64,000 bases of DNA from Clostridia bacterium (GTDB lineage: Bacteria; Bacillota; Clostridia; Oscillospirales; CAG-272): positions 168,952 to 232,951 of the forward strand of contig JAFVUF010000012.1 in NCBI GenBank assembly GCA_017502875.1, read 5' to 3'. Both the position numbers and the translations under genes were made by a program. Below, piece by piece: positions 1 to 61,865 of the stretch. The notes beneath the pieces were generated by a model that was not told the DNA's origin, searched no databases, and saw only the letters and a list, made by a program, of their open reading frames with translations. Numbering within the stretch: the first letter of the stretch is position 1; each line of letters starts with the position of its first letter.

Positions 1-98
1 GGAGGAGTTTTACGGAGAAATACGCGCTTTCTAAAGAAAGCTGAGCAAAGACTTTTGTATAACCCCACCTCCGCAAAAACGGAGGCGAGGTTATATAT
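1..98 (+). repeat. Family-B hairpin repeat B1, head-first on + strand (left edge may be cut by window start)
   Basis: GGAGAAATACGCGCTTTCTAAAGAAAGCTGAGCAAAGACTTTTGTATA, then 13-bp-stem hairpin (AACCCCACCTCCG / CGGAGGCGAGGTT), then TATATA; same layout as other B copies. Confidence 0.8.
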
Positions 99-188
99 TT
101 CCTTGTCAGTTTTTCAAACAACTCGAACTACTCAAAACACATCTATTTTCCAAAAAAATGTACTCAAAATTATATAGATAGTAAAACT

Positions 189-2613: not shown

Positions 2614-2651
2614 GGAGCTGAGCCACAATAAATGGACTAAGCTCCTTTTTT
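2614..2651 (+). terminator. Intrinsic terminator
   Basis: GGAGCTGAGCC..GGACTAAGCTCC imperfect stem followed by TTTTTT. Confidence 0.55.
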
Positions 2652-2656
2652 CGGGA

Positions 2657-2750
2657 GGTGCGTATTTCTCTTTTCGTGAAGCGCGTATTTCTCTTTTCGT
2701 GAAGCGCGTATTTCTCTTTTCGTGAAGCGTGTATCTCTCTTATTTCACAA
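2657..2750 (-). repeat. Four tandem 23-nt units, each a family-B head fragment (copy B2)
   Basis: GCGCGTATTTCTCTTTTCGTGAA x4 (last unit degenerate); reverse complement GAGAAATACGCGC equals the B head; array ends flush with the ppiB stop codon at 2740. Confidence 0.85.
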
Positions 2751-3243
2751 AATAAACGCTCTTCATTTTCTGCTCCTCGTAGGGCTTATCGCGGAAATCG
2801 GTCTTAACGGCGGCAATCTTGTCAACCGTCTCGATTCCCTCGACAACCGCGCCGAAGCCCGCGTACTGTCCGTCAAGGAATGTAGCGTCGGCGTGGCAGA
2901 TAAAGAACTGACTCGAAGCGCTGTCGGGAATCTGTGTACGCGCCATCGAAATCACACCTCTCTTGTGAGAAAGTGTGTTATTTACGCCGTTTATCTTAAA
3001 CTCACCCTTAATGGTCTTTTTAGAGCCGCCCATTCCCGTTCCCGTCGGGTCGCCGCCCTGAATCATAAAGCCCGCGATAACACGGTGAAAGATTATACCG
3101 TCGTAATAGCTCTCGGAAACGAGCCTTTTGAAGTTTTCAACGGTTATGGGTGCGATGTCGGGGTAAAGCTCAACGACAATTTTGTCGCCGCTTTCCATTT
3201 CTATCGCAACGAAATTCGTTACCTCATCGGTTCTTGTAAACAT
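2740..3243 (-). CDS. ppiB: Cyclophilin-type peptidyl-prolyl cis-trans isomerase
   Basis: 167-aa ORF; FHRVIAGFMIQGGDPTGTG cyclophilin signature. Confidence 0.9.
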   Translation of the reverse strand: MFTRTDEVTNFVAIEMESGDKIVVELYPDIAPITVENFKRLVSESYYDGIIFHRVIAGFMIQGGDPTGTGMGGSKKTIKGEFKINGVNNTLSHKRGVISMARTQIPDSASSQFFICHADATFLDGQYAGFGAVVEGIETVDKIAAVKTDFRDKPYEEQKMKSVYFVK

Positions 3244-9116: not shown

Positions 9117-9145
9117 TTGACAAAGCGGTTTTAATATGCTATACT
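9117..9145 (+). promoter_or_regulatory. Sigma-A-type promoter of rplJ-rplL
   Basis: TTGACA, 17-nt spacer, TATACT. Confidence 0.6.
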
Positions 9146-9149
9146 AATC

Positions 9150-9334
9150 AAGTCAAACAAACCAAAGACAGTAGGTTTAAGTAATAATTCAGCTATGCCG
9201 AATTTCCTACCGAGGCGAAAAGACACGGACAAAATAGCATAATTTTTCGTTATGCCCAAGGTACGTATATTTTTCAGTTCTCGGTCGCCGAAATCGGTTA
9301 TCGGGATTTTTTATTTGCCTACGAAAAATCTGTT
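9150..9334 (+). promoter_or_regulatory. Probable L10 (rplJ) ribosomal-protein leader
   Basis: ~185-nt structured untranslated leader between promoter and rplJ, ending in a hairpin plus TTTTTT; assignment is by position, I cannot verify the covariance model by eye. Confidence 0.4.
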
Positions 9335-13983: not shown

Positions 13984-14997
13984 TTAGTTTTTATAAATCC
14001 CGAATCTAACGGTGGCGTAACCGAAGGCAAGCGCAAGTAAAATCACGCCGACAATCTCACCCGCAACCGAGATATTGAGAGTTACCGCTATCCCGACAAG
14101 CACTATCGCGTATACGTACATAATAGCTACGGCAAGTTTCTGTCCGTATCTTTCGCATAAGCGGTGATGAACGTGCTTCTTGTCTCCGCAGAAAATGCTC
14201 TGCTTTGACATAAGTCTGCGTATAATGGCGAATGACGTGTCAAACACAGGCAGTCCAAGAATCGCAAGCGCCGTAAAGGCGGAAAGCGTGTAGCCCTCAA
14301 CTGTCGGCGAGGAAAATACCGACTCGCAAAGCATTGCGGTAAGCATAAATCCAAAGAACATCGAGCCCGCGTCCCCTAAAAACGTCTTTGCGGGATTTGC
14401 GTTGTGAGGAAGGAAGCCAAGCGCCGCGCAAAGCAGGGTAAGCGCTATCGCAACCACGTTTCCGTCATAGAAAAGGAACGATACGAGCGCTATTCCACCG
14501 CACCCGAAAATCGCGATTCCGGTGCAAAGCCCGTCTACGCCGTCTATTAAATTGATAATATTCGTTACCGCGATAACCATAAATACAGTAACGGGATAAG
14601 CAAAAATCCATAGGTCAAACGTAACGCCGAAAAGCGTTATAAACTGCGCCGTAACGCCAAACGCGCAAAGCGCCACGCCCGCTAAGGCTTGTCCGAGTAT
14701 CTTTATCATCGGTTTAAGACCGAATTTGTCGTCAAGCATGCCTACGGTAACGATTATCAGTCCGCCAACTATGTAAGGAAGCGCCTCAAAGAAGTAACCC
14801 GTAACGCTTATAGCGATAGAAAACGCGAGAAATACCGCTGCTCCGCCAATTCGTGGGGTGGCGTCCTTGTGCATTCTTCGCTCGTCCTTCGGTATGTCCA
14901 TAAACCCTAAAACAGGCGCAAGTCTTATCGCCGGGAACGTCAGTCCAAATCCCAGCCCTAACGCTATTACACATGCTATTAATGTATATAGTTCCAT
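13984..14997 (-). CDS. Glycosyltransferase family 4 (MraY/WecA/TagO-like undecaprenyl-phosphate sugar-1-phosphate transferase)
   Basis: Polytopic membrane protein; DIPKDERRMHKDATPRIGG motif; start trimmed to MELYTL (ATG 14997) because the upstream 43 codons translate repeat B3. Confidence 0.75.
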   Translation of the reverse strand: MELYTLIACVIALGLGFGLTFPAIRLAPVLGFMDIPKDERRMHKDATPRIGGAAVFLAFSIAISVTGYFFEALPYIVGGLIIVTVGMLDDKFGLKPMIKILGQALAGVALCAFGVTAQFITLFGVTFDLWIFAYPVTVFMVIAVTNIINLIDGVDGLCTGIAIFGCGGIALVSFLFYDGNVVAIALTLLCAALGFLPHNANPAKTFLGDAGSMFFGFMLTAMLCESVFSSPTVEGYTLSAFTALAILGLPVFDTSFAIIRRLMSKQSIFCGDKKHVHHRLCERYGQKLAVAIMYVYAIVLVGIAVTLNISVAGEIVGVILLALAFGYATVRFGIYKN

Positions 14998-15016
14998 TTT
15001 ATACCCTTTCGTTAAA

Positions 15017-15105
15017 GAGATACGCGCTTTCTTGAAAGAAAGCTGCGCAAAGAACTTTTGTATACTCGTTGCTCCGCACAAGCACGAAGCAACAAGCATA
15101 TATAG
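15017..15105 (+). repeat. Family-B repeat B3, head-first; head ~20 nt from the GT4 start codon
   Basis: GAGATACGCGCTTTCTTGAAAGAAAGCTGCGCAAAGAACTTTTGTATA plus hairpin CTCGTTGCTCCG/CGAAGCAACAAG plus TATATAG. Confidence 0.9.
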
Positions 15106-15240
15106 TTTTTTCGTGGCTTTTTCCAAAAATATACATTCCCTTAAACAATAAGATTATCACAAAAGGGAACGAAAAATAAATCGCAACGTGAACTTTAAAT
15201 GAGTTATCGCTTTTGAAGAAGTTACATCATTTGAAAAAAC

Positions 15241-15334
15241 TGTGTAAGGATATATAATCGATGCTTCGTATATATGCGAGGCATCGATTATACAGAAGTC
15301 TTTGCGCAGCTTTCTTCAGAAAGCGCGTAACCCC
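15241..15334 (-). repeat. Family-B repeat B4, tail-first; head ~20 nt from the trpS stop codon
   Basis: TATATAATCGATGCTTCGTATATATGCGAGGCATCGATTATACAGAAGTCTTTGCGCAGCTTTCTTCAGAAAGCGCGTAACCCC. Confidence 0.9.
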
Positions 15335-15353
15335 TTCAAGCGCGATAATCCCT

Positions 15354-16352
15354 TTACAGTCCAACGTAACCGATTTTTCTGTGGACCTTAGAGATAGTTT
15401 TACGAGCGATATAATTTGCGCGCTCGGCTCCGTTTTTCATAACGTCCTCAAGGTACTTTTTATCCTTCATCAAGGCGTCGAATTTCTCACGGAGAGGCGC
15501 GAGGCAATCGGCAACAGTCTCACCGACGGCGAGCTTGAAATCTCCGTAGCCCTTGCCCTCAAACTCACGCTCGATAGCCTCAAAGTCCTTACCCGTAAAG
15601 CAGGAATATATGCTCATCAGGTTGTTTATTCCGTCCTTGCCCTCGGCGTAGCGAACAACGGTATCGCTGTCAGTTACCGCGCGCCTGAACTTACGGATAA
15701 TGTCATCACGGGAATCGAGAATACCGACGGAGGCGTTTGGATTTGCGTCCGACTTGCTCATCTTCTTGGTAGGCTCCGCAAGCGACATTATCTTCATACC
15801 CGTCTTTGCGATATAGCCCTCAGGCACAGTAAACGTGTCGCTGTAGCTGTTATTGAAGCGAGTAGCGATATCGCGCGCAAGCTCTAAATGCTGGCGCTGG
15901 TCCTGACCGACGGGAACGAGGTCCGCCTGATAAAGCAGAATATCCGCCGCCATAAGCACAGGATAGGTAAAAAGACCGGCGTTTATGTTGTCCGCGTGCT
16001 TTAAGCTCTTGTCCTTGAACTGCGTCATTCGAGAAAGCTCGCCGAACATCGTGTAGCAGCCGAGGTCCCACGCGAGAACCGCGTGCGCGGGCACGTGGCT
16101 CTGTACGAAAAGGGTGTTCTTTTCGGGGTCAAGCCCTGCCGCCATATAGACCGCAAGCGTCTCGTAGGTACGGGCGCGAAGCTCCGCGGGCACCTGGCGC
16201 ACCGTTATCGCGTGCATATCAACTACACAGTAAATGCAGTTGTATTCATCTTGAAGCGCAGTCCAGTTCTTTATCGCTCCAAGATAGTTTCCTATCGTTA
16301 AATTTCCGCTCGGCTGAACTCCCGAGAATATCGTTTTCTTCTGTTGTTCCAT
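15354..16352 (-). CDS. trpS: Tryptophan--tRNA ligase
   Basis: 332 aa; class I motifs (GVQPSGNLTIGNY, KMSKS). Confidence 0.95.
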   Translation of the reverse strand: MEQQKKTIFSGVQPSGNLTIGNYLGAIKNWTALQDEYNCIYCVVDMHAITVRQVPAELRARTYETLAVYMAAGLDPEKNTLFVQSHVPAHAVLAWDLGCYTMFGELSRMTQFKDKSLKHADNINAGLFTYPVLMAADILLYQADLVPVGQDQRQHLELARDIATRFNNSYSDTFTVPEGYIAKTGMKIMSLAEPTKKMSKSDANPNASVGILDSRDDIIRKFRRAVTDSDTVVRYAEGKDGINNLMSIYSCFTGKDFEAIEREFEGKGYGDFKLAVGETVADCLAPLREKFDALMKDKKYLEDVMKNGAERANYIARKTISKVHRKIGYVGL

Positions 16353-16380
16353 GGTGTACCCTTTCTAAATTTGTACAAAA

Positions 16381-16467
16381 GGGATTACGCGCTTTTCGAG
16401 AAAAGCTACGCAAAAGCTTCTGTACGACGAAGCCGCACCCCACGGGGTATCGCTTCGTCATATGTAG
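16381..16467 (+). repeat. Family-B repeat B5, head-first; head ~29 nt from the trpS start codon
   Basis: GGGATTACGCGCTTTTCGAGAAAAGCTACGCAAAAGCTTCTGTAC plus hairpin GACGAAGC../..GCTTCGTC plus TATGTAG. Confidence 0.85.
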
Positions 16468-16604
16468 TTTTTATAGCTTTCACAAACACCGTACCGCTTC
16501 TATACATACCTGAATAGGTATAAAACGGAACGGAGAATGATATATCTCATTGTTAGATAAGATTGATAAGCATTTTTGCAGGAATTACGGAATTTTTGAA
16601 AACC

Positions 16605-16741
16605 GTGTAAGGATATATAATCGATGCTTCGTATATATGCGAGGCATCGATTATACAAAAGTCTTTGCGCCGACGTTTGCAAAGCAAACTCGTAAGAAAA
16701 CTTTAGTTTTTAAAGCTTCTCTTCAGAAAGCGCGTAACCCC
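16605..16741 (-). repeat. Family-B repeat B6 (extended variant), tail-first; head ~23 nt from the rimO stop
   Basis: Same tail hairpin as B4, then GCGCCGACGTTTGCAAAGCAAACTCGTAAGAAAACTTTAGTTTTTAAAGC insert, then TTCTCTTCAGAAAGCGCGTAACCCC. Confidence 0.9.
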
Positions 16742-16763
16742 TTCAAAACGCTAATCACTCTTA

Positions 16764-18101
16764 TTATTTCCCAATTTGAGCTATTTCGCAAACGAGGTCA
16801 TAGTCAATGGCGTCTGTAATAACGACGTCAACCATATCCCCCGGTGCGAAGGCGTTTTTCGGAGCGCCGACGAGATAAAGCTTCCCGTCGATTTCGGGCG
16901 CCTCCTTTTCGGTGCGGCAGAAATAGCTGTCGGAAACGGGGTCGTAGCCCTCGACCATAGCAATCTCTCGTTTACCAACACGCGCGGAATTTATCCTCTC
17001 GGCAATTTTGTTCTGCTGCTTCATTACGGCGTCGTAACGGCGCTTTTTCTTCTGCTCCGGCAGATGACCGTCAAGCTTTTCGGCAGGCGTACCCTCCTCT
17101 TTTGAGTAGGTAAACGCCCCGAGGCGCTCAAACTTAGTATCGGCAAGATAATTTATCAGCTCCTCAAACTGCTCGCCCGTCTCACCGGGAAAGCCGACGA
17201 TGACCGTGGTGCGAATGATGATACCGGGACAAGCCTTTCTAAGTCTTGCAACGGCGTCCTCGATAACCGCGCGTCCGCCGTGTCGGTTCATTCTTTTCAG
17301 AACCCCGTCGCTGATGTGCTGAATAGGCATATCTATGTATTTAACAAGCCTGTCGTTGCTTCTGAACTGCTCGCAAAGCCCGTCGGTTATCTTGTCAGGG
17401 TAGCAGTAAAGCACCCTTATCCACGGAATATTCGTTTCGTCGGTTATGCGCTGAATAAGCATATCAAGCTTAAAATCTCCGTAAATATCTAACCCGTAAC
17501 GCGTGGTGTCCTGCGCCACAAGTATAAGCTCGCGTACGCCGAGCGCCTCCATATCCTTTGCCTCGGCAATAAGCTCCTCGATAGGTCTTGAACGGAACGC
17601 GCCGCGAATATCGGGGATAGCGCAGTAGGTGCAGCGGTTGTCGCAGCCCTCGGCTATCTTCATATATGCGTAATGCTCAGGCGTGGTTACTATACGGTCT
17701 CCGCCAAGCGCCGCCTCCTCAGGCTTTTTCAGCACCGAAAAGCGCTCGCCCTTCACAACTCTTTGAACAACACTTACAACGTCGTGAATAGCGCCGACTG
17801 ACATTATGGCGTCAACCTCGGGGAACTGTGCGAGTATCTCGTCGCCGTATCTCTGCACGAGGCAGCCGCAAACAACAAGCTTTTTAAGCCTTGCGTTCTC
17901 TTTAAGCCACGCAAGGTCGAGAATGTTGTCAATCGCCTCCGTTTTGGCGTCCTTTATGAAGCCGCAGGTATTCAGAATGATTACGTCAGCCTCGGTCTCC
18001 TCGGCGCATATCTCGTAACCCGCGGCGTTTAATTCACTTAACATTACCTCAGTGTCAAGCTGATTTTTAGGACACCCAAGGCTTACAAATCCTACTTTCA
18101 T
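16764..18101 (-). CDS. rimO: Ribosomal protein S12 methylthiotransferase RimO
   Basis: N-terminal VSLGCPKNQLDTE, radical-SAM CDNRCTYC, C-terminal TRAM domain; start trimmed to MKVGFV (RBS GGAGATG). Confidence 0.8.
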   Translation of the reverse strand: MKVGFVSLGCPKNQLDTEVMLSELNAAGYEICAEETEADVIILNTCGFIKDAKTEAIDNILDLAWLKENARLKKLVVCGCLVQRYGDEILAQFPEVDAIMSVGAIHDVVSVVQRVVKGERFSVLKKPEEAALGGDRIVTTPEHYAYMKIAEGCDNRCTYCAIPDIRGAFRSRPIEELIAEAKDMEALGVRELILVAQDTTRYGLDIYGDFKLDMLIQRITDETNIPWIRVLYCYPDKITDGLCEQFRSNDRLVKYIDMPIQHISDGVLKRMNRHGGRAVIEDAVARLRKACPGIIIRTTVIVGFPGETGEQFEELINYLADTKFERLGAFTYSKEEGTPAEKLDGHLPEQKKKRRYDAVMKQQNKIAERINSARVGKREIAMVEGYDPVSDSYFCRTEKEAPEIDGKLYLVGAPKNAFAPGDMVDVVITDAIDYDLVCEIAQIGK

Positions 18102-21341: not shown

Positions 21342-23882
21342 TTATTCCTTAGTTTCGTCATTTGAGGGTGCGATTGAAGCTTCGTTTTCCTCACTTAGCG
21401 GCTGCTCGTCAGAGGTGTCATCGCCGCGACCGACGTTGGCAACCGCGCTGACCTTACCCTCTCCCGTCCTCATAACGATAACTCCGCTTGCGGTTCTGCT
21501 GTACTCGGATATATCGCGAACGTGGGTGCGTATGGTAATTCCGTTGTCGGAAATGATAACTATATCGTCCTCGTCCTCAACCGCCGTTATCGCCGCAAGC
21601 TTACCGGTCTTGTCGCTGAGTCCGTGAACTCTTACGCCCTTACCGCCTCTGTTAGTCGTTCTGAAATCGTCAAAGCCGCTTCTCTTTCCAAAGCCGTTCT
21701 CGGTCATCGTGAGAAGCTTCTTCGTTTCGTCAACCAGCACGCAGCCGACTACGTAGTCGCCCTCGCCAAGTCTTATACCGCGGACTCCGCGAGCGCCTCT
21801 GCCCATTACTCTGGCGTTGTTCTCGTCAAAGCGGACGGCGTTACCGTCGTGGCTCGCTATTACGATAGCGTCCTGACCTGAGGTGTGGCGAACGTAAACC
21901 AGCTCGTCGTCCTCGTCAAGATTAATCGCCTTCTTACCCTTCTTGCGCTGGAACGCGAACTCGGAAAGCGCCGTTCTCTTGACGGTTCCCTTCTTTGTAA
22001 CCATAAGCAGATACTCGTCGTCATTGTACGACTCGTCGCTTACAGATATCATCGAGGTTATCTTCTCGCCCTTTTCAATCTCAATTACATTTACGGCGTT
22101 GATTCCCTTAGCGATTCTGCTCGCCTCAGGCACCTTGTACGCTCTTATCGTGAATACCTTGCCAAGACTTGTGAACATCATAAGGTCGGAGTGCGTATCG
22201 CACGCGATAACCGTCTCAACGAAGTCCTCTTCCTTGGTCGTAATTCCCTTTACGCCCTTGCCGCCTCTTGCCTGAGCGTTATACGCCTCGGCAGACATAC
22301 GCTTTAAGTAGCCGCTGTGCGTCATCGTGATAACGCAGGTGTGGCGGTCGATAAGGTCCTCGTCGTCAAGGTCGGCGTCGAAGCTTATCTCCGTTCTTCT
22401 CGGGTCGGCAAACTTGTTCTTTATCTCGGTTATCTCGTCCTTTATTATCTGCTTTATCTTGTCCATGCTCGAAAGCTTGTCCGTTATGTCAAAGATTACC
22501 GCTTCAAGACGAGCAAGTCTTTCCTCTATCTTTGCCCTTTCAAGTCCCGTCAGCTTTCCAAGCGTCATCTCGACTATCGCCTGAGCCTGCGGCTCTGTAA
22601 GTCCGTAAATATCGCAGAGCTTTGCCTTTGCGTCGGGAATGCTGTCGGCGCCCTTGATAAGCGCGATAATGTCGTCTATATTATCGGAAGCTATTTTCAG
22701 TCCCTCTAAAATGTGCGCTTCCTTTTTCGCCTTTTCAAGCTCATATTTAAGACGGCGGACCGTAATGTTCTCCTGATGCTCAATATAGTGATTAAGCATA
22801 GCCTTGAGTCCGAGAACTCTCGGCACGTTGTCCACCAGCGCCAGCATATTAGCGGCGAAGGTGTCTTCAAGACGGGTGTACTTGTAAAGCTGGTTTAAAA
22901 GCACATGTCCGTTTACGTCGCGGCGGTACTCGATAACGATACGCAGACCGTCCTTGCCCGACTCATCGCGGACGTCGGTTATTCCGTCTACCTTCTTGTC
23001 CTTTTTGTCCTTCTTGTCCTTGCTCTCGTTTGCGCAGTTACATATTCCCTCGACAAGCGAGACCTTGTTCACCTGATAAGGTATTTCTGTAACGATTATG
23101 CGGTGGTTCTCCTCGTCAACCGTTGCTCTGGCTCTTACCTTGATGTGCCCCTTACCCGTCTCGTAGGCGTTACGTACTCCGGAAAGTCCGCAGATTATAG
23201 CGCCCGTCGGGAAGTCGGGAGCCTTGATGAACTGCATAAGGTCGTCGGTTGTAGCGTCGGGGTTGTCCATTAAATAGATAACTCCGTCTATTATCTCGCC
23301 TAAGTTGTGGGTTGGAATATTCGTCGCCATACCGACAGCGATTCCTATTGAGCCGTTAACCAGCAGGTTCGGGAAACGCGCGGGAAGAACAACAGGCTCT
23401 TTGAGCTTGTTGTCGAAGTTCGGGGTGAAGTCTACGACGTCCTTTTCGATGTCCGTAAGCATATGGTCGGCAAGCTTGCTCATTCTCGCCTCGGTGTAAC
23501 GGTAAGCGGCAGCGCTGTCTCCGTCAATGTTACCGAAGTTTCCGTGTCCGTCAACAAGCGGATAGCGGAGCGAGAAATCCTGCGCCATTCTTACCATCGT
23601 GTCGTAAACCGCCGTGTCTCCGTGAGGGTGATAGCGGCCAAGCACGTTACCTACCGTGGTCGCTGACTTGCGGAACGGCTTGTCGTACGTAAGGTGGTCC
23701 TCGTACATAGCGTAAAGTATGCGGCGGTGTACGGGCTTGAAGCCGTCGCGTACGTCAGGCAGAGCTCTGGACATTATTACACTCATCGCGTAGTTGATGA
23801 AGGATGTCTTTACCTCCTGTCCCATGTTTACCGGTACTATCTTTTGTTCCTTAAATTCGATATCGTCCTGTTTCTTTTCCAT
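21342..23882 (-). CDS. gyrA: DNA gyrase subunit A
   Basis: 846 aa; active-site region [14 protein letters not shown]-like [11 protein letters not shown]-terminal beta-pinwheel repeats. Confidence 0.97.
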
Positions 23883-23922: not shown

Positions 23923-24004
23923 GGGAATACGCGCTTTTCGAGAAAAGCTGCGCAAAAGCTTTTCTACGACGAAGCCACCCCAAAAGGAGTACCTTCGTCG
24001 TAAA
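23923..24004 (+). repeat. Family-B repeat B8, head-first; head ~41 nt from the gyrA start
   Basis: GGGAATACGCGCTTTTCGAGAAAAGCTGCGCAAAAGCTTTTCTAC plus hairpin GACGAAGCC../..CCTTCGTCG. Confidence 0.9.
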
Positions 24005-24120
24005 TCAGGCATTGTGAGCTCTGCCCAAAAAACGAACCCCTCTGCGTAAAGTGCGTATTTCGCTGAAATAATATTTTGTTCTTTTTGATGTGTAATTTTT
24101 TTGTGTATGTATAAGAAATA

Positions 24121-24399
24121 TGTGGAAAAATGTTGAAAAATGGGGGTAAAAATTTTTGTCCACACGAAATCAACAGAAAAACGGAAGTTTTCCACAGTTT
24201 TGGAGAGTTTTCCACATAGGTTTTCCACAGTTTATGTTAAAAAGCGGTTTTTTTGAGGTGCGATATGGGGTTTTCGGGTGTTGAAAACTCAATTTTTGAG
24301 GTTTTCCCTAAGCAACAATTTATTGTGAATAGCAATTTTCAAGAAGTTTTCCACAATCTTTTTCATACCCTGTGGAAAACTTTTTCATCTCTTTCCACA
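24121..24399. promoter_or_regulatory. DnaA-box cluster (8 box-like 9-mers) with adjacent AT-rich tract
   Basis: TTTTCCACA at 24188, 24208, 24221, 24347; TGTGGAAAA at 24121, 24371; TTGTCCACA at 24156; CTTTCCACA at 24391; AT-rich 24061-24120. Confidence 0.75.
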
Positions 24400-24535
24400 T
24401 TATTTATAACTCTCCGCTTTTTAACGGATTACCTGTTAATACTTTTTAGTCTTGATATTTTGCCGGTCGAAGTAATAGGAACAAGCGCTTCTTTTTAAGA
24501 GAATATCACATTTTGCGGAGAGCCGAACAGAAACC

Positions 24536-24666
24536 TATATATAATCGACGCATCGTGCTTTTTACGAGGCGGCGATTATACAGAAGCTTTTGCGCCGACG
24601 TTTGCAAAGCAAACTCGTAAGGAAACTTTAGTTTCTAAAGCTTCTTCTCGAAAAGCGCGTATCCCC
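24536..24666 (-). repeat. Family-B repeat B9 (extended variant), tail-first; head ~38 nt from the gyrB stop
   Basis: TATATATAATCGACGCATCG..CGAGGCGGCGATTATACAGAAGCTTTTGCGCCGACGTTTGCAAAGCAAACTCGTAAGGAAACTTTAGTTTCTAAAGCTTCTTCTCGAAAAGCGCGTATCCCC. Confidence 0.9.
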
Positions 24667-24703: not shown

Positions 24704-26839
<2,136 letters not shown>

Positions 26840-26930
26840 TCAGTTGGGTTTATTAAATTTTTATTGGATAGATATGATGTTGTGAGGTAGGTGAACGTTC
26901 TTTTGATTAAATCTACGAAATAATTCTTTT

Positions 26931-27037
26931 GCGCCGATAGACAAAAGCGATCATAGTTTAGCCTTGAACTAATATTAAGTCTATCGGTGTAAAAGAAGTT
27001 TTTGCGCAGCTTTTTTCAAAAAGCGCGTATTCCCCCC
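26931..27037 (-). repeat. Family-B repeat B11, tail-first; head overlaps the DUF370 stop codon
   Basis: Hairpin GCGCCGATAGAC../..GTCTATCGGTGT then AAAAGAAGTTTTTGCGCAGCTTTTTTCAAAAAGCGCGTATTCCCCCC. Confidence 0.85.
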
Positions 27038-28543: not shown

Positions 28544-29131
28544 GTGCCTGTTGGCACAAGCTTTTTGAAAAAAGCTTGACCAAAACTTCTCTTACGGGCT
28601 GCCGCCCAACACTTAACAAACACTTACTCTGTTTAAAATCTTTACAAGGAAGCCGTAGGCTTTAACTTAGCGGCGCTCGAAATGCTCAACGTTCTCAAAA
28701 GTACGCGCCGCCAATTCGCCAACGGGGGCGTCCCCGGTCGCCGCAGGCCGTTGCCTGCCGTCGCCATTTGCCTCCAGGCGCTCGCCTGGCGCAATGACTT
28801 TTTCTTTGGGAAGAAGCAGAGCCCAAAGAAAAAGTAACAAAAAGAAAGGCTCGTTTGGGATATTTCGCTCTCTGCGGAGAGCGACAAGGCTCCGCGCCTT
28901 GACTGCGCCGCCTTTTGAAAAAGGTGGGCGAAAACTTCTAAGCATTGTGAACTTCTGTGCAAACCTTAGTGTAGCGAAGCGAACCTCGACTTAGCGGCGC
29001 TCGAAATGTTCGACGTTCTCAAAACTACACGCCGCCATTTGCCTCCGGGCGCTTGCCTGGCGCCGCCATTTGCCTACAGGCGCTTGCCTGGCGATTGCCA
29101 TTTGCCTACAGGCGCTCGCCTGCCGATTGCC
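28544..29131 (+). repeat. Family-A composite array A6 (at least two elements plus extra CCAGGCG hairpin units)
   Basis: GTGCCTGTTGGCACAAGCTTTTTGAAAAAAGCTTG..; GCAGGCCGTTGCCTGC variant hairpin; second full module series; three tandem GCCATTTGCCT(C/A)C(A/G)GGCGCT(T/C)GCCTGGCG units; overlaps the degV 3' end. Confidence 0.9.
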
Positions 29132-34500: not shown

Positions 34501-35060
34501 AGGCTAATATTCCGTCGAAAATAGCGTTCCGAGTCGCCTCAAACGTTGACTCGCGAGTCATTCTCGGTAACGTAGGCGCCGAAAAGCTGCTTGGCCGTGG
34601 CGATATGCTCTATCACCCCACGGGCGGCAACCAGATAAGAGCGCAAGGCGCTTTCGTCGATACGCCTGAGATAAAGCGCGTGCTTGACTTCATTATCGAA
34701 AACAACGGCGCGGTTGAATACGACCCCGAAATTCTTTACAGACTCCAAAGCGAGACGGATAAGCTGAATAAGACGGATAAGAAATCCGCCATAGGAGGCG
34801 ACGACGACTTTGCCGTTGATACCGCCGATATAGATTTTGACTATCTCTGCCAAGCTGTTGAGCTTGTCATTAATCTCGGAAAGGCGACCACAAACGTTAT
34901 CCAGAGACACTTGAAAATCGGCTTCAACCGAGCGTCAAATATAGTTGATAAGCTTGAGGACCTCGGCTTTATCTCCAAGAGCAACGGAAGCAGTAAGCCA
35001 AGAGACGTAACCGTTACTATGGCTGAATACCTCGAATGGAAAAACTCACACCAGAAGTAA
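31503..35060 (+). CDS. ftsK: DNA translocase FtsK/SpoIIIE
   Basis: 1185 aa; N-terminal TM helices, ~480-aa Pro/Ala/Glu-rich linker, motor domain with Walker A GQTKSGKSV and IIIIDELADLM, C-terminal gamma winged helix. Confidence 0.93.
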   Translation: MKSKKSVKKPNGARASSKSGAKRRVALNKSGRTSIPKQKLSDKRKKSIFSAITPFILFAVSLLLETCFLLPEKSGGAGILVHDLFFGLFGSVSHVIAIGLLLISFFYKDLSERGALRYKLVLFAVLAAVLTSANTLAAQNGLKDAAFSLNTFWQTGTLAESGGVFGGVLGFLFSKLFGGIAATVITVIVSVALASLCFGKTRLGVWQVFVRDKNGESAMRPQQHTAPAMPESAPVVANAGAPQITEITVPRRIDTLLSNDITESEPSAPQLSEPEQLIPELVGGEAENAPEYADGVQSDGQLTDLDDFDDSLGEGDGLRSSYRPADLMEDFGFRAEQTKKTEKQDIYSEEPKPAPARPIEVPRTAPAAPKKQESPEAPRGYSPFATIMSKEEFFGERDAKKTYDTPENTAAPSVKTVAYSPFSDPIASMNAPKRDVTDLPPQSYIAAGQEKIWEDMREQARIIENEHNAAAKAAEETENEPVFSKAALSFNEFSHNDGTGRSDDTAYEPHFCAKNDVSSVSGRSDGTDNYGISAKFSAIEDNQNSFSPVPTKDELYSSDPMADFAPAQNEKPSFSSAFPERHEPVQSAPVFTNEPKPTPTYTESAPAQPKNPIIPPAQPKISVTSAPVTPERAVPVMPAENTHSAFDDDITAPEQEDEIARPVAEQEPERDPRVINPFSRYTKLRYPKYVKPPTSLLDEADNTKKISEEEIHAVMRKILDKFESFHVDVSITGYSAGPSITRYEVTPGPGVKYKQVTGLAEDIGLALQSDTIKGEVRIVTVPGKPVIGIEVPNSVVSKVSLRSLVENPDFQKAKSKITVCVGLTVSGKPVYMNIDDMPHVLVAGQTKSGKSVAINAMIMSIIYRASPDEVQFILVDPKQVELSIYNDIPHMVMPVIDDPKRAAGALQWAVAEMERRYTLIKNARVRDREEYYRMKDQNPDFEYMPQIIIIIDELADLMLQVREHVEEPINRLAAKARACGINLVIGTQRPSTDIVTGLIKANIPSKIAFRVASNVDSRVILGNVGAEKLLGRGDMLYHPTGGNQIRAQGAFVDTPEIKRVLDFIIENNGAVEYDPEILYRLQSETDKLNKTDKKSAIGGDDDFAVDTADIDFDYLCQAVELVINLGKATTNVIQRHLKIGFNRASNIVDKLEDLGFISKSNGSSKPRDVTVTMAEYLEWKNSHQK
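33000..33152 (+). repeat. Family-C intragenic element, two tandem in-frame copies (66 nt + 87 nt) inside the ftsK linker
   Basis: Both start GGTCGTAGCGACG(A/G)CACCG; the 87-nt copy (33066-33152) matches the mnmG copy at about 72/87 ungapped positions (hand count). Confidence 0.85.
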
Positions 35061-35076
35061 CCGTTTGTTGAAACGT

Positions 35077-35164
35077 TTTTCCGGCTTTCTTGAAAGAAAG
35101 CCTCGGCAAAGAACTCTGTACACCGCCAGCCCCCAATTTTATAGGAAACTGTCGGTGTATATAA
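35077..35164 (+). repeat. Family-B-like repeat B13 (variant head), head-first; ~17 nt after the ftsK stop
   Basis: TTTTCCGGCTTTCTTGAAAGAAAGCCTCGGCAAAGAACTCTGTACACCGCCAGC..CTGTCGGTGTATATAAT. Confidence 0.8.
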
Positions 35165-35342
35165 TTTTCACGAGGTTTGCTCAAAAAAGGGAAAACCCTC
35201 CGTTCCAATGGGCTTGTACACCGCATCAGGTTAGGATTTGAGTTATATAGTCTACGTTTATACATTCAGATTATGTGCTTTTTAATCCAAGCCTTTTCGT
35301 CGAAGTAGATACACTGTTTTATTTGAAGCTTTGTAAAAAAGA

Positions 35343-35471
35343 CTATATAATCAATGCTTCGTATATATGCGAGGCATTGATTATACAAAAGCTTTTGCGC
35401 CGACGTTTGCAAAGCAAACTCGTAAGGAAACTTTAGTTTCTAAAGCTTCTTCTCGAAAAGCGCGTATCTCC
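35343..35471 (-). repeat. Family-B repeat B14 (extended variant), tail-first; head ~30 nt before the DJ-1 start
   Basis: TATATAATCAATGCTTCGTATATATGCGAGGCATTGATTATACAAAAGCTTTTGCGCCGACGTTTGCAAAGCAAACTCGTAAGGAAACTTTAGTTTCTAAAGCTTCTTCTCGAAAAGCGCGTATCTCC. Confidence 0.9.
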
Positions 35472-35500: not shown

Positions 35501-36046
35501 ATGATATATATTTATTTAGCGCAGGGCTTTGAGGAAACGGAGATGATATTTCCTCTCGACCTTATGCGTCGCGCGGGACTTGACGTAAAAACCGTATCGG
35601 TTACGGGCGAGCTTAACGTAACCGGCTCACACGGCATAACCGTAAAGGCGGACATGCTGGTAAGCGACCCAAGCTACGACCTGTCAGACGTCCAGCTCGT
35701 TATGCTTCCGGGCGGAATGCCGGGCACGATAAATCTCGAAAAAAGCGCAGAGGTGCAAAAGGCGATACGCTACGCCTACGACAGCGGCAGATACATTGCC
35801 GCTATATGCGCCGCCCCCCTCGTTCTCGGAAACGCTGGACTGCTTAAAGGAAAAAAGGCGGTGTGCTACCCGGGCTTTGAAAAGTACCTTGCGGGCGCCG
35901 AAAACCCCGCCAACAGATGCGTAACGGACGGAAAAATAATCACGGCAGTCGGCTGCGGCGCGGCGGCGGAGCTTGGCTTTGCTATAATAACCGAGCTTTG
36001 CGGCGCGCAGACAGCGGAGAGTATAAAAAATGGAATTCTCGCATAA
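35501..36046 (+). CDS. DJ-1/PfpI-family protein
   Basis: 181 aa; nucleophile elbow AAICAAP; DJ-1/ThiJ-like throughout. Confidence 0.85.
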   Translation: MIYIYLAQGFEETEMIFPLDLMRRAGLDVKTVSVTGELNVTGSHGITVKADMLVSDPSYDLSDVQLVMLPGGMPGTINLEKSAEVQKAIRYAYDSGRYIAAICAAPLVLGNAGLLKGKKAVCYPGFEKYLAGAENPANRCVTDGKIITAVGCGAAAELGFAIITELCGAQTAESIKNGILA

Positions 36047-37772: not shown

Positions 37773-37981
37773 GGGGATACGCGCTTTATGGTGGCGCATA
37801 GCGTTAATGCGCGCCTTAAATTCAATTGCGCCACCATCGAATATTTTTCTTGGTCGGAGCGACCAAGCTTTTGCGCTAAACGGCAAAAGACAAAATATTC
37901 CCATAATCTGTGTAGCCTCCGCTGCGCAAAAGCTTCTGTATACTCGGTCTCCCGCACACGTACGGGACTCCGAGTATATAG
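37773..37981 (+). repeat. Family-B repeat B15 with nested insertions, head-first; 6 nt after the mltG stop
   Basis: GGGGATACGCGCTTT interrupted by a 60-nt palindromic unit (ATGGTGGCGC..GCGCCACCAT, 37788-37847); resumes ..GCTGCGCAAAAGCTTCTGTATA plus hairpin CTCGGTCTCCCG../..CGGGACTCCGAG plus TATATAG. Confidence 0.8.
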
Positions 37982-38110
37982 CTCTGCGAATTTCACTTGA
38001 ATAGTGTACTCCCTTAATCACAAGAAGCTTTGTTCTATAATAACTCACATTATATTTTGAAATTAATACAGATTGATATGCAATATGCCGTTTTTGAACA
38101 ACCCCCAGAA

Positions 38111-38194
38111 TTATATAATCGGCGTTCCGTGCTTGTACGGTGCGGCGATTATACAGAAGTTTTGCGGAGCTTTTTCAAAAGCGACCGTATCCCC
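38111..38194 (-). repeat. Family-B repeat B16, tail-first; head ~36 nt before the U32 start
   Basis: TTATATAATCGGCGTTCCGT..ACGGTGCGGCGATTATACAGAAGTTTTGCGGAGCTTTTTCAAAAGCGACCGTATCCCC. Confidence 0.85.
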
Positions 38195-40883: not shown

Positions 40884-41000
40884 GGAGATACGCGCTTTCT
40901 TGCAAGAAAGCTGCGCAAAGAACTCTTTTACACCGACAGTCTCATAATTTTGTGAAATTTTTTCGCTCAGCTATGTGAGACTGTCAGTGTAAAAGATAAC
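40884..41000 (+). repeat. Family-B repeat B17, head-first; ~18 nt after the proA stop
   Basis: GGAGATACGCGCTTTCTTGCAAGAAAGCTGCGCAAAGAACTCTTTTACACCGACAGTCTCA..TGAGACTGTCAGTGTAAAAGATAAC. Confidence 0.9.
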
Positions 41001-41070
41001 TTTGTAAAGTATCTTTTAAAAAATAAGTATTCCACTCAGGAATTATTACTACACGAGAAATTTGAGAAGT

Positions 41071-48012: not shown

Positions 48013-48438
48013 ATGCTTAACGTAAAAATCGTATGCGTCGGAACGCTGCGCGAGGCGTTTCTTCGCGACGCGGTAAAGGAGTACGAAAAACGCCTGCAAG
48101 CCTACTGTAAGCTTACAACAGTTGAGCTTAAAGAGGATAGCAAGCTGCCGAGCGCCGTTGAGGGAAAGGGCTATAAAATCGCGCTTTGTGTGGAGGGCAA
48201 GCAGCTTTCCTCGCCTGAGCTTGCCGAGCTTATAGAAAGCGGTACGGTAACGGGACAGGGCAACCTCACGCTCGTCATCGGAGGCGCTGACGGACTGCCC
48301 GAGGGCGTTAAGGCGATGTGCGATTACCGACTTTCCTTTTCAAAAATGACCTTCCCCCACCAGCTTATGCGCGTTATTCTGCTCGAACAGCTCTACCGCG
48401 CCCTCAATATCCTAAACGGCGGTCATTATCATCATTAA
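48013..48438 (+). CDS. rlmH: 23S rRNA (pseudouridine1915-N3)-methyltransferase RlmH
   Basis: SPOUT-family RlmH pattern (LVIGGADGLPE.., SFSKMTFPHQLMRVILLEQLYRA); start at ATG 48013 (RBS GGGAGAG). Confidence 0.88.
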   Translation: MLNVKIVCVGTLREAFLRDAVKEYEKRLQAYCKLTTVELKEDSKLPSAVEGKGYKIALCVEGKQLSSPELAELIESGTVTGQGNLTLVIGGADGLPEGVKAMCDYRLSFSKMTFPHQLMRVILLEQLYRALNILNGGHYHH

Positions 48439-48451
48439 ATTCCAAGCACAA

Positions 48452-48535
48452 GGAGAGATACGCGCTTTCTTGAAAGAAAGCTGCGCAAAGAACTCTCTTA
48501 CCGCGACAGCAGGAGCTATCGCGGTAAGAGATAAC
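48452..48535 (+). repeat. Family-B repeat B19, head-first; ~14 nt after the rlmH stop
   Basis: GGAGAGATACGCGCTTTCTTGAAAGAAAGCTGCGCAAAGAACTCTCTTACCGCGACAGC..GCTATCGCGGTAAGAGATAAC. Confidence 0.9.
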
Positions 48536-48689
48536 TCTGTGTATCTCCTTTGAGGAAACTCGGACACTCCTGCCGCTAAACATACTTTTGATATAACCCG
48601 TAATCGATAAAATTAATAAAAATAGGACGTACAGGTTCTTCATTTGGAAAGAAAAACGTCCTTTTAGAAAGAAGTTATCGAAAATTTTT

Positions 48690-48768
48690 ATTAAACCCAA
48701 CTCCTTTTTGAGGGGTTGGGTTTAATACAGAAGCTTTTGCGCAGCTTTTCTCGAAAAGCGCGTATCTC
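48690..48768 (-). repeat. Family-B repeat B20, tail-first; head ~23 nt before the mnmG start
   Basis: Hairpin AAACCCAACTCC..GGGGTTGGGTTT then AATACAGAAGCTTTTGCGCAGCTTTTCTCGAAAAGCGCGTATCTC. Confidence 0.88.
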
Positions 48769-48790
48769 TTTTCAACCGGAAGGAACACAA

Positions 48791-61710: not shown

Positions 61711-61797
61711 GGAGATACGGTCGCTTTTGAAAAAGCTCCGCAAAACTTTTGTATCGCAAAGCTCTCCCCGTGGGGAGAGACTTTGCAATATATATAT
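61711..61797 (+). repeat. Family-B repeat B21, head-first; ~24 nt from the mnmE start
   Basis: GGAGATACGGTCGCTTTTGAAAAAGCTCCGCAAAACTTTTGTATCGCAAAGCTCTCCCCGTGGGGAGAGACTTTGCAATATATATAT. Confidence 0.85.
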
Positions 61798-61865
61798 TTC
61801 TGTAACTTTCATAAACGACGTAGCTTCTTTTCACCGCAAGGGACATCAGCTCGTCGATTTTTATC

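Follow-up and report, generated by a model that had tools for sequence, protein, structure and literature searches.

A polar repeat family at gene edges in uncultured Clostridia, with mirror covariation in its conserved head

Why would a small DNA repeat sit at the edges of genes and always turn the same end toward them? The 64-kb stretch of Clostridia DNA analysed here (the window) raises this question; it had been read as carrying an unfamiliar hairpin repeat, family B, whose conserved head module faces the nearest coding sequence (CDS) in every assessable copy. We examined the anatomy, placement and distribution of these repeats, and weighed the explanations that might account for their polarity.

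Copies and anatomy of family B

Seventeen copies of family B were recognisable in the window, together with one tandem array of partial heads (Table 1); the 21 copies of the original prediction were not reproduced. The family is confirmed as real and non-random in the window. The 12-mer GGGGATACGCGC occurs there 18 times with at most 2 mismatches, against 6.05 expected occurrences, and a model (HMM) of the 52-nt head identified 12 full heads at E <= 8e-10. Gene identities around the copies were checked with Pfam.

Table 1. Family B copies and associated features in the window.
Head	Feature	Position	Strand	Neighbouring CDS end
16+	B copy (head, tail, distal motif) at window edge	16..128	+	head-side CDS outside window
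	tandem array of four 23-nt partial heads (5′ half only)	2650..2740	-	adjoins stop of cyclophilin PPIase, 2740..3243(-)
15016+	B copy	15016..15136	+	head 18 nt from GT4 (Glycos_transf_4) start codon at 14997
15334-	B copy	15221..15334	-	head 19 nt from trpS stop at 15354; degenerate partial head in gap
16381+	B copy	16381..16494	+	head 28 nt from trpS start at 16352
16741-	B copy, 45-nt two-hairpin insert between arm2 and S3	16584..16741	-	head 22 nt from rimO stop at 16764
23923+	B copy	23923..24006	+	head 40 nt from gyrA start at 23882; orthologous SIG673 site without copy
24666-	B copy with 45-nt insert	24535..24666	-	head 37 nt from gyrB stop at 24704
26683+	exemplar B copy	26661..26797	+	71 nt from gyrB start at 26611 (49 nt counting partial head at 26661)
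	exemplar parts	partial head 26661-26682; full head from 26683; arm1 26693-26699; arm2 26702-26708; S3 mirror block 26712-26719; tail hairpin 26725-26765	+	
27034-	B copy, T5 head, ACACCG-type tail	26924..27034	-	head 2 nt from stop of RemA-like (DUF370) gene at 27037
35074+	variant B copy, clamp CCGGC/GCC, without GGGGATAC leader	35074..35191	+	13 nt from ftsK stop at 35060
35471-	B copy with 45-nt insert	35308..35471	-	head 29 nt from DJ-1 start at 35501
37773+	B copy, head broken by ~140-nt insert (resumes 37921)	37773..38009	+	5 nt from mltG/YceG stop at 37767
38194-	B copy, ACGGTCGC...GCTCCGC compensatory variant	38083..38194	-	head 44 nt from peptidase U32 start at 38239
40884+	single B copy, ACACCG-type tail	40884..41017	+	head 17 nt from aldehyde dehydrogenase stop at 40866
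48454+	short B copy	48454..48548	+	head 15 nt from rlmH stop at 48438
48769-	B copy	48689..48769	-	head 21 nt from mnmG start at 48791
61711+	single B copy, ACGGTCGC variant	61711..61824	+	head 23 nt from mnmE start at 61687

The unit is an asymmetric, structured DNA repeat of roughly 100-200 bases. Its conserved head of ~50 nt is composed of a G-rich leader (GGGGATAC), a GC lower stem of 3-4 bp, an A/T hairpin and a mirror purine block; three heads in the window carry a 45-nt insert, one is split by a longer insert and one is a clamp variant. Most full heads have partial heads in tandem directly on their outer side. The tail hairpin is species-specific, the head core being kept across many genera while tails change. 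A hairpin tail had been predicted, and this stands, but its stem is not confined to 12-16 bp (window tails have 10-21 bp) and TATA(T)A closes only ~12/17 of the window tails. Four stop-adjacent copies in the window have a different, ACACCGACAG-type tail. Tails of the ACACCG type were found at 0 start and 4 stop codons and those of the TATA type at 8 start and 4 stop codons, a distribution that is suggestive only of start- and stop-specific subfamilies.

A second repeat family, family A, has the head core in common with family B. The original prediction missed it, and the partial-head duplications, the mirror covariation and the strand asymmetry of the hairpins were also absent from it.

The purine block of the head (S3), located 7 nt past the hairpin, is the mirror image of the purine arm of that hairpin. 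Among the 99 copies with asymmetric arms, 96 had the mirror arrangement, 0 the direct one and 3 neither, in 8 variants with the 7-nt spacing fixed, and the three-block rule is obeyed by 184/192 heads. Readings in which S3 directly repeats arm2, or pairs with arm1 in Watson-Crick fashion, were rejected, given the 0 direct cases among these 99. Judged from its sequence, the head carries the signature of an intrastrand triplex, as BoxC does; its blocks are A/T-rich and 4-7 nt long (4-7 triads). Under published class definitions, by which both RNA and DNA can form pyrimidine-motif triplexes (PMC4666352), the order of blocks on the bottom (tail-to-head) strand, namely Hoogsteen pyrimidine block, Watson-Crick pyrimidine arm and purine arm, would correspond to a class IV intrastrand triplex, and the head may adopt such a fold. 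It is very doubtful, however, that selection maintains the head as an intramolecular triple helix of the tail-to-head strand, with U.A-U / C+.G-C triads in RNA or T.A-T triads in single-stranded DNA, and that the units also serve the host as polar gene-end punctuation setting or protecting transcript ends. If true, this would be the first bacterial repeat family with a triplex backed by three-way covariation and a positional rule.

Orientation at gene ends and heads-out pairs

Both neighbours are visible for 16 of the 17 window copies, and in all 16 the distance from head to CDS end is 2-71 nt, with a median of about 21, eight heads being at a start and eight at a stop; the far end of the 100-nt unit is 87-684 nt from the next CDS. 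The orientation-only binomial probability is p = 1.5e-5, and placement probabilities multiply to 3e-19. The predicted polarity at both 5′ and 3′ gene ends thus holds, at 16 copies rather than 20 and over a wider range of distances than the 0-48 nt first given. The polarity is no artefact of short spacers, the window spacers measuring 204-821 nt, and it recurs in an independent genome, the metagenome-assembled genome (MAG) SIG673 (SVSQ01) of a different species, where 27/33 heads lie <=34 nt from a CDS end.

Start codons are faced by 8/16 window copies and 7/27 SIG673 copies, so family B is not restricted to gene 3′ ends. Placement at stop codons can be very tight: ten SIG673 heads lie -2 to +3 nt from the stop, and an upstream module in that genome, (GA)TGT(T/A)ACAT, begins 0-8 nt past stop codons in 8/8 carriers. 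In another MAG, CGS10Y1-bin10 (JAVVOA01; hereafter CGS), stop-adjacent copies account for 9/11 of those next to a CDS. Inverted heads bracket single genes or operons in the window (trpS, gyrB, the DJ-1 to mltG operon and the U32 to aldDH operon), and several transcription units there have a head at only one end. A replication-linked orientation of the IS200/IS605 kind was rejected, since copies to the left and to the right of the strand switch near 30.5 kb occur in either orientation.

All seven predicted heads-out pairs are present, with trpS and gyrB each bracketed. One may postulate that each pair is a single MITE with the heads as its terminal inverted repeats, in which case CDS proximity would follow trivially from insertion into short spacers; a pair does fill seven spacers, and the trpS-GT4 spacer is only 6-25 nt in distant relatives. 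This model is already largely refuted, and we regard it as scarcely credible. The 100-540 nt between partners are unique in each pair, so that replication does not act on the pair as a unit, and one interior holds a DnaA-box cluster that is conserved in SIG673. The partners of a pair are always different head and tail variants with unrelated tails, and single copies are equally polar, both in SIG673 (21/25 singles, which make up most of its polar copies) and in the window (40884+ and 61711+). Inverted similarity between the far end and the start of the head was significant in 5/9 window copies (z 3.7-6.3); the far end of the 48454..48548 copy, CTGTGTATCTCC, repeats the head start in inverted form. 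Terminal inverted similarity in SIG673 was not significant (mean z 0.4), and the terminal inverted repeats suspected there by eye were rejected on scoring. No direct repeats marking a target-site duplication flank the units at the inspected junctions, where the right boundary is poorly defined. As expected of MITEs, near-identical copies at unlinked loci and presence/absence differences among relatives were both found.

Spread, folding strand and possible explanations

About 20 MAGs of uncultured gut and rumen Clostridia carry the head pattern, each in many copies. At the trpS loci of relatives the family is absent from 77/80, with only 3 weak matches in 598 kb around trpS of these 80, and the trpS-GT4 spacer measures 356 nt here versus 6-25 nt in family-less relatives. 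Near-identical units of ~190 nt stand at unlinked loci in SIG673, and family B is thus a lineage-restricted amplifying repeat. Occupancy differs between species: comparing the window with SIG673, the gyrA and gyrB starts are occupied only in the window and the gyrA stop only in SIG673, and the gyrB stop in SIG673 carries a different variant than the window's 24535..24666 copy; the gyrA stop is occupied in both SIG673 and CGS, by different variants. The SIG673 gyrA ORF enters a head and ends at the TGA of the head's loop. No same-species empty sites were found among contigs 99.97-100% identical to the window, whose only differences from it are assembly breaks within heads or family-A repeats, nor among trpS relatives, the closest of which had only 70-76% protein identity and no synteny beyond trpS-GT4. 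In short-read assemblies of these MAG lineages the repeats cause breaks, with contigs ending inside heads, and they mislead gene callers, the GT4 ORF having been extended through a copy.

Family B is undescribed, in agreement with the original prediction that it is an unrecognised family. It had no match in Rfam, where the sole gathering-threshold match in the 64 kb was an L10 leader and the best sub-threshold match in 14950-16800 had an E of at least 0.18; plasmid, phage and viral collections returned no informative match (one viral contig was uninformative), and a literature string search found no publication printing its sequence. A T-box or other riboswitch upstream of trpS was rejected, having no Rfam match. 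The window was predicted to lack any transposase, integrase or Y1/RAYT-like gene, and Pfam agrees. A tblastn search with approximate query sequences found no Y1/RAYT transposase in 830 kb of sampled loci; its Y1 matches were dismissed as chance, the best one, in locus L075, not being a transposase. We found no recurrent gene beside heads, and a search for a parent insertion sequence with the same ends gave no recurrent neighbouring ORF and no plasmid or phage match.

At gene starts and gene stops, it is the bottom strand that folds, forming a tail hairpin that includes G.U (or G.T) pairs. Stem mismatches favour bottom-strand G.U pairs by 13:0 in the window and 15:0 in SIG673, at start- and stop-adjacent copies alike, and the bottom strand had the more stable fold in 12/12, 31/37 and 23/29 copies. 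In an RNAalifold consensus the tail pairs over 15 bp; 10 of these pairs show compensatory changes, and 28/36 sequences have U.G at one pair. The bottom strand of the SIG673 unit contains a hairpin with a C-GAA-G triloop, which is an unusually stable DNA mini-hairpin. By inspection, TTGAAA/TTGAAG-16/17-TATAAT-like motifs run from tail to head in about 10/15 copies, including TTGAAA-16-TATAAT at 15231-15258 inside the 15221..15334 copy and TTGAAG-17-TATAAT at 35323-35351 inside the 35308..35471 copy; no promoter was seen in the SIG673 unit or inside the head.

The CGS tails form a GC-rich hairpin followed by a T-run in head-to-tail orientation, a canonical terminator, and the top strand folds better in 20/27 CGS copies. 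In SIG673 the tail and a U-rich block resemble a terminator when read from tail to head, also where the copy lies at a start codon, and the tail and U-tract of the window's 48454..48548 copy score as terminator-like on the same reading. Several window tails have U5-6 runs 3-5 nt downstream, and a simple consensus scan found no sense-direction canonical terminator at the window's stop-adjacent copies. Canonical terminators do occur nearby: an A6-hairpin-T5 terminator lies on the tail side of the 2650-2740 array, which thus falls between stop codon and terminator, and the jag terminator lies ~60 nt past the far end of the 61711..61824 copy.

One explanation, possible and tentatively preferred here, treats family B as a modular repeat akin to BIME, BOX and MITE elements, non-autonomous and confined to one lineage, which amplifies in uncultured Clostridia and which selection may filter to untranslated gene edges because of its transcriptional directionality. 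The folded bottom single strand, as ssDNA or RNA, would be the form that matters for propagation, and polarity would arise from selection after insertion, not from a gene-finding mechanism. In the head-to-tail direction, transcripts would be ended or stabilised by a strong hairpin and the U-rich stretch behind it; in the tail-to-head direction, transcription would pass, often with the putative -35/-10 elements that the unit itself has in this genome. A unit of such directionality would persist only at untranslated edges with its head toward the gene, tolerated sites probably being the stretch from stop codon to spacer and the positions immediately 5′ of the Shine-Dalgarno sequence. A selection-filter argument has likewise been made for pneumococcal SPRITE (PMC3049150). 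Several results sit poorly with this explanation: neither the window nor the 830 kb sampled with approximate queries yielded a transposase/Y1/RAYT gene, and no target-site duplication was seen; the bottom-strand bias extends to stop-adjacent copies, whose sense transcript is the top strand, and the simple scan gave these copies in the window no sense-direction canonical terminator; and the SIG673 tail is terminator-like in the tail-to-head direction, where no promoter motif is evident. The very tight placement, with 10 SIG673 heads <=3 nt from a stop codon, would also have to be explained. Were polarity selective, it would offer a natural read-out of the direction in which a structured insert is tolerated at each bacterial gene end, and the units might supply portable modules, directional terminators or leaders, for use in Clostridia.

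The same tight placement, in both the SIG673 heads and their upstream module, would favour an alternative in which a transposase or recombinase encoded elsewhere inserts the unit head-first beside a CDS-boundary feature or resident half-heads. Partial heads outside most full heads, as if the 5′ half of the head were a preferred target, are consistent with such mechanistic polarity, as are the differing variants that two species carry at one gene end, at the gyrB stop for the window and SIG673 and at the gyrA stop for SIG673 and CGS. It would point to a novel integration system recognising gene boundaries. We nevertheless consider it unlikely: the junctions have no common target motif or target-site duplication, start-side and stop-side flanks have nothing obvious in common, no candidate enzyme was found (the tblastn part with approximate queries), and we know of no way in which a DNA enzyme could sense both kinds of CDS end in mirror orientation. 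Another scenario has the units as host-functional RNA modules, co-opted into untranslated regions, whose hairpin and triplex would protect or define mRNA ends or whose inverted heads would pair, closing the mRNA or creating an RNase III site. The bracketing of genes and operons and the strong structural covariation of the tail agree with it; the mirror rule would fit a U.A-U / C+.G-C RNA triplex on the sense strand of start-adjacent genes (PMC4666352), and RNase III is reported to cleave Correia elements once they are transcribed (PMC2649163). Yet positions at the same genes are not conserved between species, most relatives are without the family, several transcription units have a head at one end only, stop-adjacent copies retain the bottom-strand mismatch pattern though their sense RNA is the top strand, and end-pairing would require inverted orientation but not specifically heads-in; on balance this scenario seems quite unlikely. 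The head might instead act in DNA, as an intrastrand triplex, cruciform or bound site that forms a polar roadblock, supercoil sink or recombination hotspot. Its blocks follow the Y-R-R order of BoxC/TMECO, which folds into a DNA triplex in vitro and is a marker of unstable loci (PMC4666352), its core is conserved across many genera as tails change, the SIG673 bottom strand bears the triloop hairpin, and the tandem partial-head arrays suggest slippage at a structure. A role of this kind is nonetheless highly unlikely in our view, as the triplex arms comprise just 4-7 triads, no binding protein is known, and a symmetric roadblock acts alike on outward transcription at both edges of a spacer and so cannot alone explain heads that face genes.

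Comparison with known repeat families

Family B resembles the RAYT-mobilised REP/BIME/REPIN elements of Enterobacteria and Pseudomonas in being a short structured intergenic repeat with hundreds of copies and strand-specific hairpins, in forming mosaics with other modules, in occupying untranslated parts of operons and, as with the Y and Z REPs of BIMEs, in forming inverted pairs of two different variants. It differs in its ~50-nt head, which lacks a GTAG-type tetranucleotide and is conserved across genera, whereas REPs are species-specific; in that the unit is not an inverted doublet with a short conserved spacer, as in REPINs, the interiors being unique and 100-540 nt; and in that no RAYT gene was found for it in the window (Pfam) or in 830 kb (approximate tblastn queries). 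Strict head-to-CDS polarity at both gene ends is not, to our knowledge, a described property of REPs.

Mycobacterial MIRUs are intercistronic, have a fixed orientation to flanking genes and occupy very tight stop/start junctions, as does family B. MIRUs follow the direction of transcription and contain small ORFs that serve translational coupling, whereas family B is mirrored at two gene ends and hairpin-based. The Correia elements (CREE/NEMIS) of Neisseria have 26-bp terminal inverted repeats and a TA duplication, a symmetry that leaves no head/tail polarity; family B, by contrast, is asymmetric, its inverted terminal similarity weak or absent. The resemblance lies in their nature as very abundant small gene-adjacent repeats; Correia elements can provide promoters at their ends and take up structure when transcribed (PMC2649163).

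Pneumococcal BOX and SPRITE are likewise modular Firmicute repeats that occur as strings of modules, sometimes nested (Croucher 2011, PMC3049150), although they have no sequence similarity to family B and no triplex-type block. SPRITE, a long hairpin with a U-rich tract near CDS 3′ ends, has been read as a selection-filtered or co-opted terminator (PMC3049150); it is enriched at 3′ ends and between convergent genes, in contrast to family B, which is found equally at start codons and in co-directional spacers.

The E. coli potential intrastrand triplexes (PITs) BoxC and TMECO (Hoyne 2000; Holder 2015, PMC4666352) are also intergenic, with pyrimidine-purine-purine blocks and short loops that fall in class II on one strand and in a pyrimidine-motif class on its complement; they frequently form inverted pairs of two types and have no associated mobile-element genes (PMC4666352). 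Family B does not match the TMECO consensus CCCTCNCCC-N3-6-GGGNGAGGG-N3-GGGNGAGGG (PMC4666352) and has an extra tail hairpin compared with BoxC. BoxC blocks are G/C-rich, 9 nt long and nearly fixed, whereas those of family B are A/T-rich, 4-7 nt long and occur in 8 or more variants with three-way compensation; BoxC has no preferred distance or orientation to ORFs (PMC4666352), and family B is strictly polar. Bacterial PITs such as BoxC have so far rested on a single fixed sequence. The 8 co-varying variants of family B provide evolutionary evidence for constraint on the three-block geometry itself, which makes triplex formation directly testable with short oligonucleotides. The mirror rule matters independently of polarity.

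Family B copies and their placement

The trpS gene is bracketed by four copies of one repeat (15017-16741), the unit of family B, which joins a conserved head of about 50 nt to a variable tail hairpin; copies are named by head position and strand. The 12-mer GGGGATACGCGC, with up to two mismatches allowed, occurs 18 times in the window against 6.05 expected, and a 52-nt head HMM recovered 12 full heads (E <= 8e-10). Reading weaker matches brought the total to 17 copies, and the 21 of the original prediction could not be reproduced. There are in addition four partial heads of 23 nt arrayed in tandem next to the stop codon of a cyclophilin gene, with a canonical terminator following them; degenerate partial heads also stand in tandem directly outside most full heads. 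Neighbouring genes, named by direct scans and from contigs with Pfam annotation that match the window exactly, are GT4, TrpS, RimO, RecX, RecA, GyrA, GyrB, RemA-like/DUF370, RecF, FtsK, DJ-1, YceG/MltG, peptidase U32, aldehyde dehydrogenase, RlmH, MnmG and MnmE. As first noted from sequence, the window carries no transposase or integrase gene, and a Y1 gene is likewise absent.

Features of the window and of loci sampled from SIG673, another Clostridia MAG carrying family B
Feature	Position	Strand or reading	Remark
Exemplar head	26683-26719		
Heads with common 45-nt insert	16741, 24666, 35471	-	weaker HMM matches, read individually
45-nt module	16672-16716, 24597-24641, 35402-35446		
Head divided by ~140-nt insert	37773/37921	+	weaker match, read individually
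Clamp-variant head	35074	+	weaker match, read individually
Partial-head array	2650-2740		
Best -35/-10-like pair	15231-15258	tail-to-head	tail side of stop-adjacent copy
Best -35/-10-like pair	35323-35351	tail-to-head	tail side of B copy 35471-
Family A repeats	953-, 3459+, 8183-, 9024+, 19142+, 19295+, 28550+, 59747+, 60077+, 63978-	as signed	second, longer mosaic family
L10 leader	9144-9322		RF00557, 47 bits; sole Rfam family at gathering score in 64 kb
Other GC-rich hairpin repeats	L071 3560-3590, L048 2470-2510		SIG673

With gene boundaries curated, the predicted polarity of heads toward coding sequences held. Each of the 16 heads that could be assessed is 2-71 nt from a CDS end (median about 21 nt), with eight facing a start codon and eight a stop codon. 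The spacers measure 204-821 nt, and 87-684 nt separate the far end of a 100-nt unit from the next CDS. A test on orientation by itself yields p = 1.5e-5 for the 16 copies, or p ~0.002 when each pair is counted once (nine spacers); under the placement null the product is 3e-19. All window copies occupy co-directional spacers. The gyrB start (26611) differs from the longest-ORF start. On its bottom strand, copy 15016+ has an open frame in phase with GT4 (14997-15099), and the public GT4 call of 371 aa begins inside that copy's tail; we consider a start at 14997 more plausible because of a GAAAGGG ribosome-binding site and a match to the N-termini of homologues.

With crude ORF calls (>= 120 aa), a CDS end lies within 34 nt of 27 of 33 SIG673 heads (20 stops, 7 starts), and the head is much closer to the CDS than the opposite end is in 21 of 25 single copies. 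Polarity is weaker in two further MAGs, EPI_MAG_00016 (EPI; 13/27 heads within 50 nt) and CGS10Y1-bin10 (CGS; 11/26 within 50 nt and 23/26 within 134 nt); the CGS element is lengthened on its head side by degenerate G-rich partial heads.

Architecture of head and tail

The head is built from a G-rich leader, a lower stem (CGC/GCG), a GC clamp, pyrimidine arm1, a loop of 1-4 nt and purine arm2, then a purine block, S3, and CTT. The lower stem is preserved through a double change in the variant ACGGTCGC...GCTCCGC, present in the window and SIG673. S3 is the complement, not the reverse complement, of arm1 and matches it in length; it therefore mirrors arm2. Among the matches listed from a head pattern scan covering one genome per species, this rule holds in 184 of 192 heads and across eight distinct variants, some common to up to seven MAGs, with S3 following arm2 by 7 nt in nearly all heads. 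Heads with asymmetric arms gave 96 mirrors, no direct repeat and three that were neither. As the scan pattern fixed only TTT...AAA...AAA, the search itself did not build in the mirror relation, which is kept in heads carrying the 45-nt insert. This module, inserted at the same point in three heads of two arm variants, holds two mini-hairpins (CTTTAG-AAA-CTAAAG and TTTGC-TTT-GCAAA); the ~140-nt insert of the 37773+ head is unrelated to it.

Judged by its sequence, the head has what a class II intrastrand triplex would require: a pyrimidine arm, a purine arm that pairs with it in Watson-Crick fashion and a purine block mirroring the latter. The opposite strand then presents the class IV order (Hoogsteen pyrimidine, Watson-Crick pyrimidine, purine), a type also possible in RNA (Holder et al. 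2015, PMC4666352). In the B-type head, formation of the 3-4 bp lower stem would leave the third block without a fold-back linker, so extended hairpin and triplex would be alternative folds.

The tail is a hairpin of 10-21 bp whose sequence varies among copies and species. On the bottom strand (tail-to-head reading), RNAalifold gives the SIG673 tail 15 pairs, ten with compensatory double changes and one that is U.G in 28 of 36 sequences. Internal stem mismatches fit bottom-strand G.U (or G.T) by 13:0 (window), 15:0 (SIG673) and 15:4 (EPI), a bias found at both gene ends (start-adjacent 15:3, stop-adjacent 10:0). As RNA, the bottom strand is stabler by ~6-7 kcal/mol (window 12/12, SIG673 31/37 and EPI 23/29 copies); CGS is reversed, with the top strand stabler in 20 of 27 copies and a tail that is a canonical terminator in head-to-tail orientation. 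A -35/-10-like pair lies on the tail side, reading tail-to-head, in ~10 of 15 window copies. At the far end, five of nine window copies carry a significant inverted match to the head start; in SIG673 such matches do not reach significance. SIG673 units also show a conserved extra hairpin beyond the tail (alignment A1, columns 12-26), with a three-base loop reading C-GAA-G on the folding strand and TTC on the other.

Distribution and surrounding repeats

Sequences 100% identical to the window are metagenome contigs only. Short-read Logan contigs that include trpS or the operon running from DJ-1 to mltG (L003-L005, L110) terminate inside B heads; the repeats therefore fragment this organism's assemblies. 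Among the matches listed, the head occurs in at least ~20 MAGs, many with many copies each, labelled Oscillospiraceae, Eubacteriales, Clostridia, Christensenella sp., Ca. Flemingiibacterium, Ruminococcus sp. and, once, Lachnospiraceae. SIG673 is a different species, with gyrA and gyrB nucleotide identity of 74-77% to the window. The trpS surroundings of 80 relatives (598 kb) hold just three weak head matches, and the trpS-GT4 spacer measures 6-25 nt in the two nearest relatives that keep this gene order versus 356 nt in the window. Searches of plasmid and phage collections, Rfam and the literature returned no match to family B.

Family A shares the B head core (GCAAGC-T5-G-A6-GCTT-GGC-A5-CTTCT) and obeys the mirror rule, with flanks unlike B, a conserved downstream module of ~100 nt and no B-like adjacency to CDS ends; assemblies from different samples diverge at one family A repeat (28738-29100). 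In SIG673, GC-rich hairpin repeats of the GCAGGCACGCGCCTGC type directly precede the ribosome-binding sites of recA and gyrB, and several further repeat modules fill the spacers. The intergenic DNA of this lineage is a mosaic drawn from many repeat families. Firmicutes tRNA-synthetase genes commonly carry a T-box leader; none was detectable upstream of trpS (16352-16741), whose 388-nt leader is taken up by two B copies. Between gyrA and gyrB (24100-24400) at least six DnaA-box-like 9-mers (TTTTCCACA / TGTGGAAAA) cluster in the only spacer interior conserved in SIG673 (L071 7850-8000, L048 1-60). This region may be oriC-like or DnaA-regulated, since dnaA lies just past the window's right end.

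Origin of the polarity and relation to known systems

Family B behaves as a selfish, modular repeat. Near-identical units of ~190 nt occur at unlinked SIG673 loci, orthologous gene ends are occupied differently in the window species and SIG673, and the gyrB stop holds different B variants in the two. The SIG673 gyrA frame runs into a B head (L071 5180-5231) and stops at the TGA of the head hairpin loop; the final residues and the stop codon are therefore supplied by the element. A mobilising gene was found neither beside heads nor, with approximate Y1 transposase queries, by tblastn across 830 kb of sampled loci.

We tentatively favour a reading in which the element propagates as its folded bottom strand and polarity results from selection on an insert with a directional effect on transcription. 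Read head-to-tail, the insert would end or stabilise transcripts, which could be tolerated past a stop codon; read tail-to-head, it would be permissive and sometimes supply a promoter, so that ahead of a Shine-Dalgarno sequence this would be the sole viable orientation. Targeted integration appears unlikely as the source of the polarity, and we give slightly less credence again to co-opted UTR modules, including pairing of 5' and 3' ends; a DNA-level triplex or protein site seems more doubtful than either. The original prediction also entertained heads-out pairs, two inverted copies with each head toward its neighbouring gene, as single MITEs. This is very improbable: pair interiors are unique, one holding the DnaA-box cluster conserved in SIG673, and the two partners are always different variants.

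We know of no earlier example of a repeat whose polarity is mirrored at CDS starts and stops, or of three-way covariation of a triplex-type motif. REP/BIME elements resemble family B in being mosaic, in having strand-specific hairpins and in forming inverted pairs from unlike variants, and BoxC/TMECO elements share its intrastrand-triplex block order but not its polarity (PMC4666352). Pneumococcal SPRITE/BOX elements are alike in modularity, closeness to 3' ends and the selection-filter argument (PMC3049150), as are Correia elements in promoter supply (PMC2649163). We do not file family B under REP-RAYT, MITEs or TMECO, because their defining features are absent or not established; it belongs to a known kind, the structured intergenic repeats.
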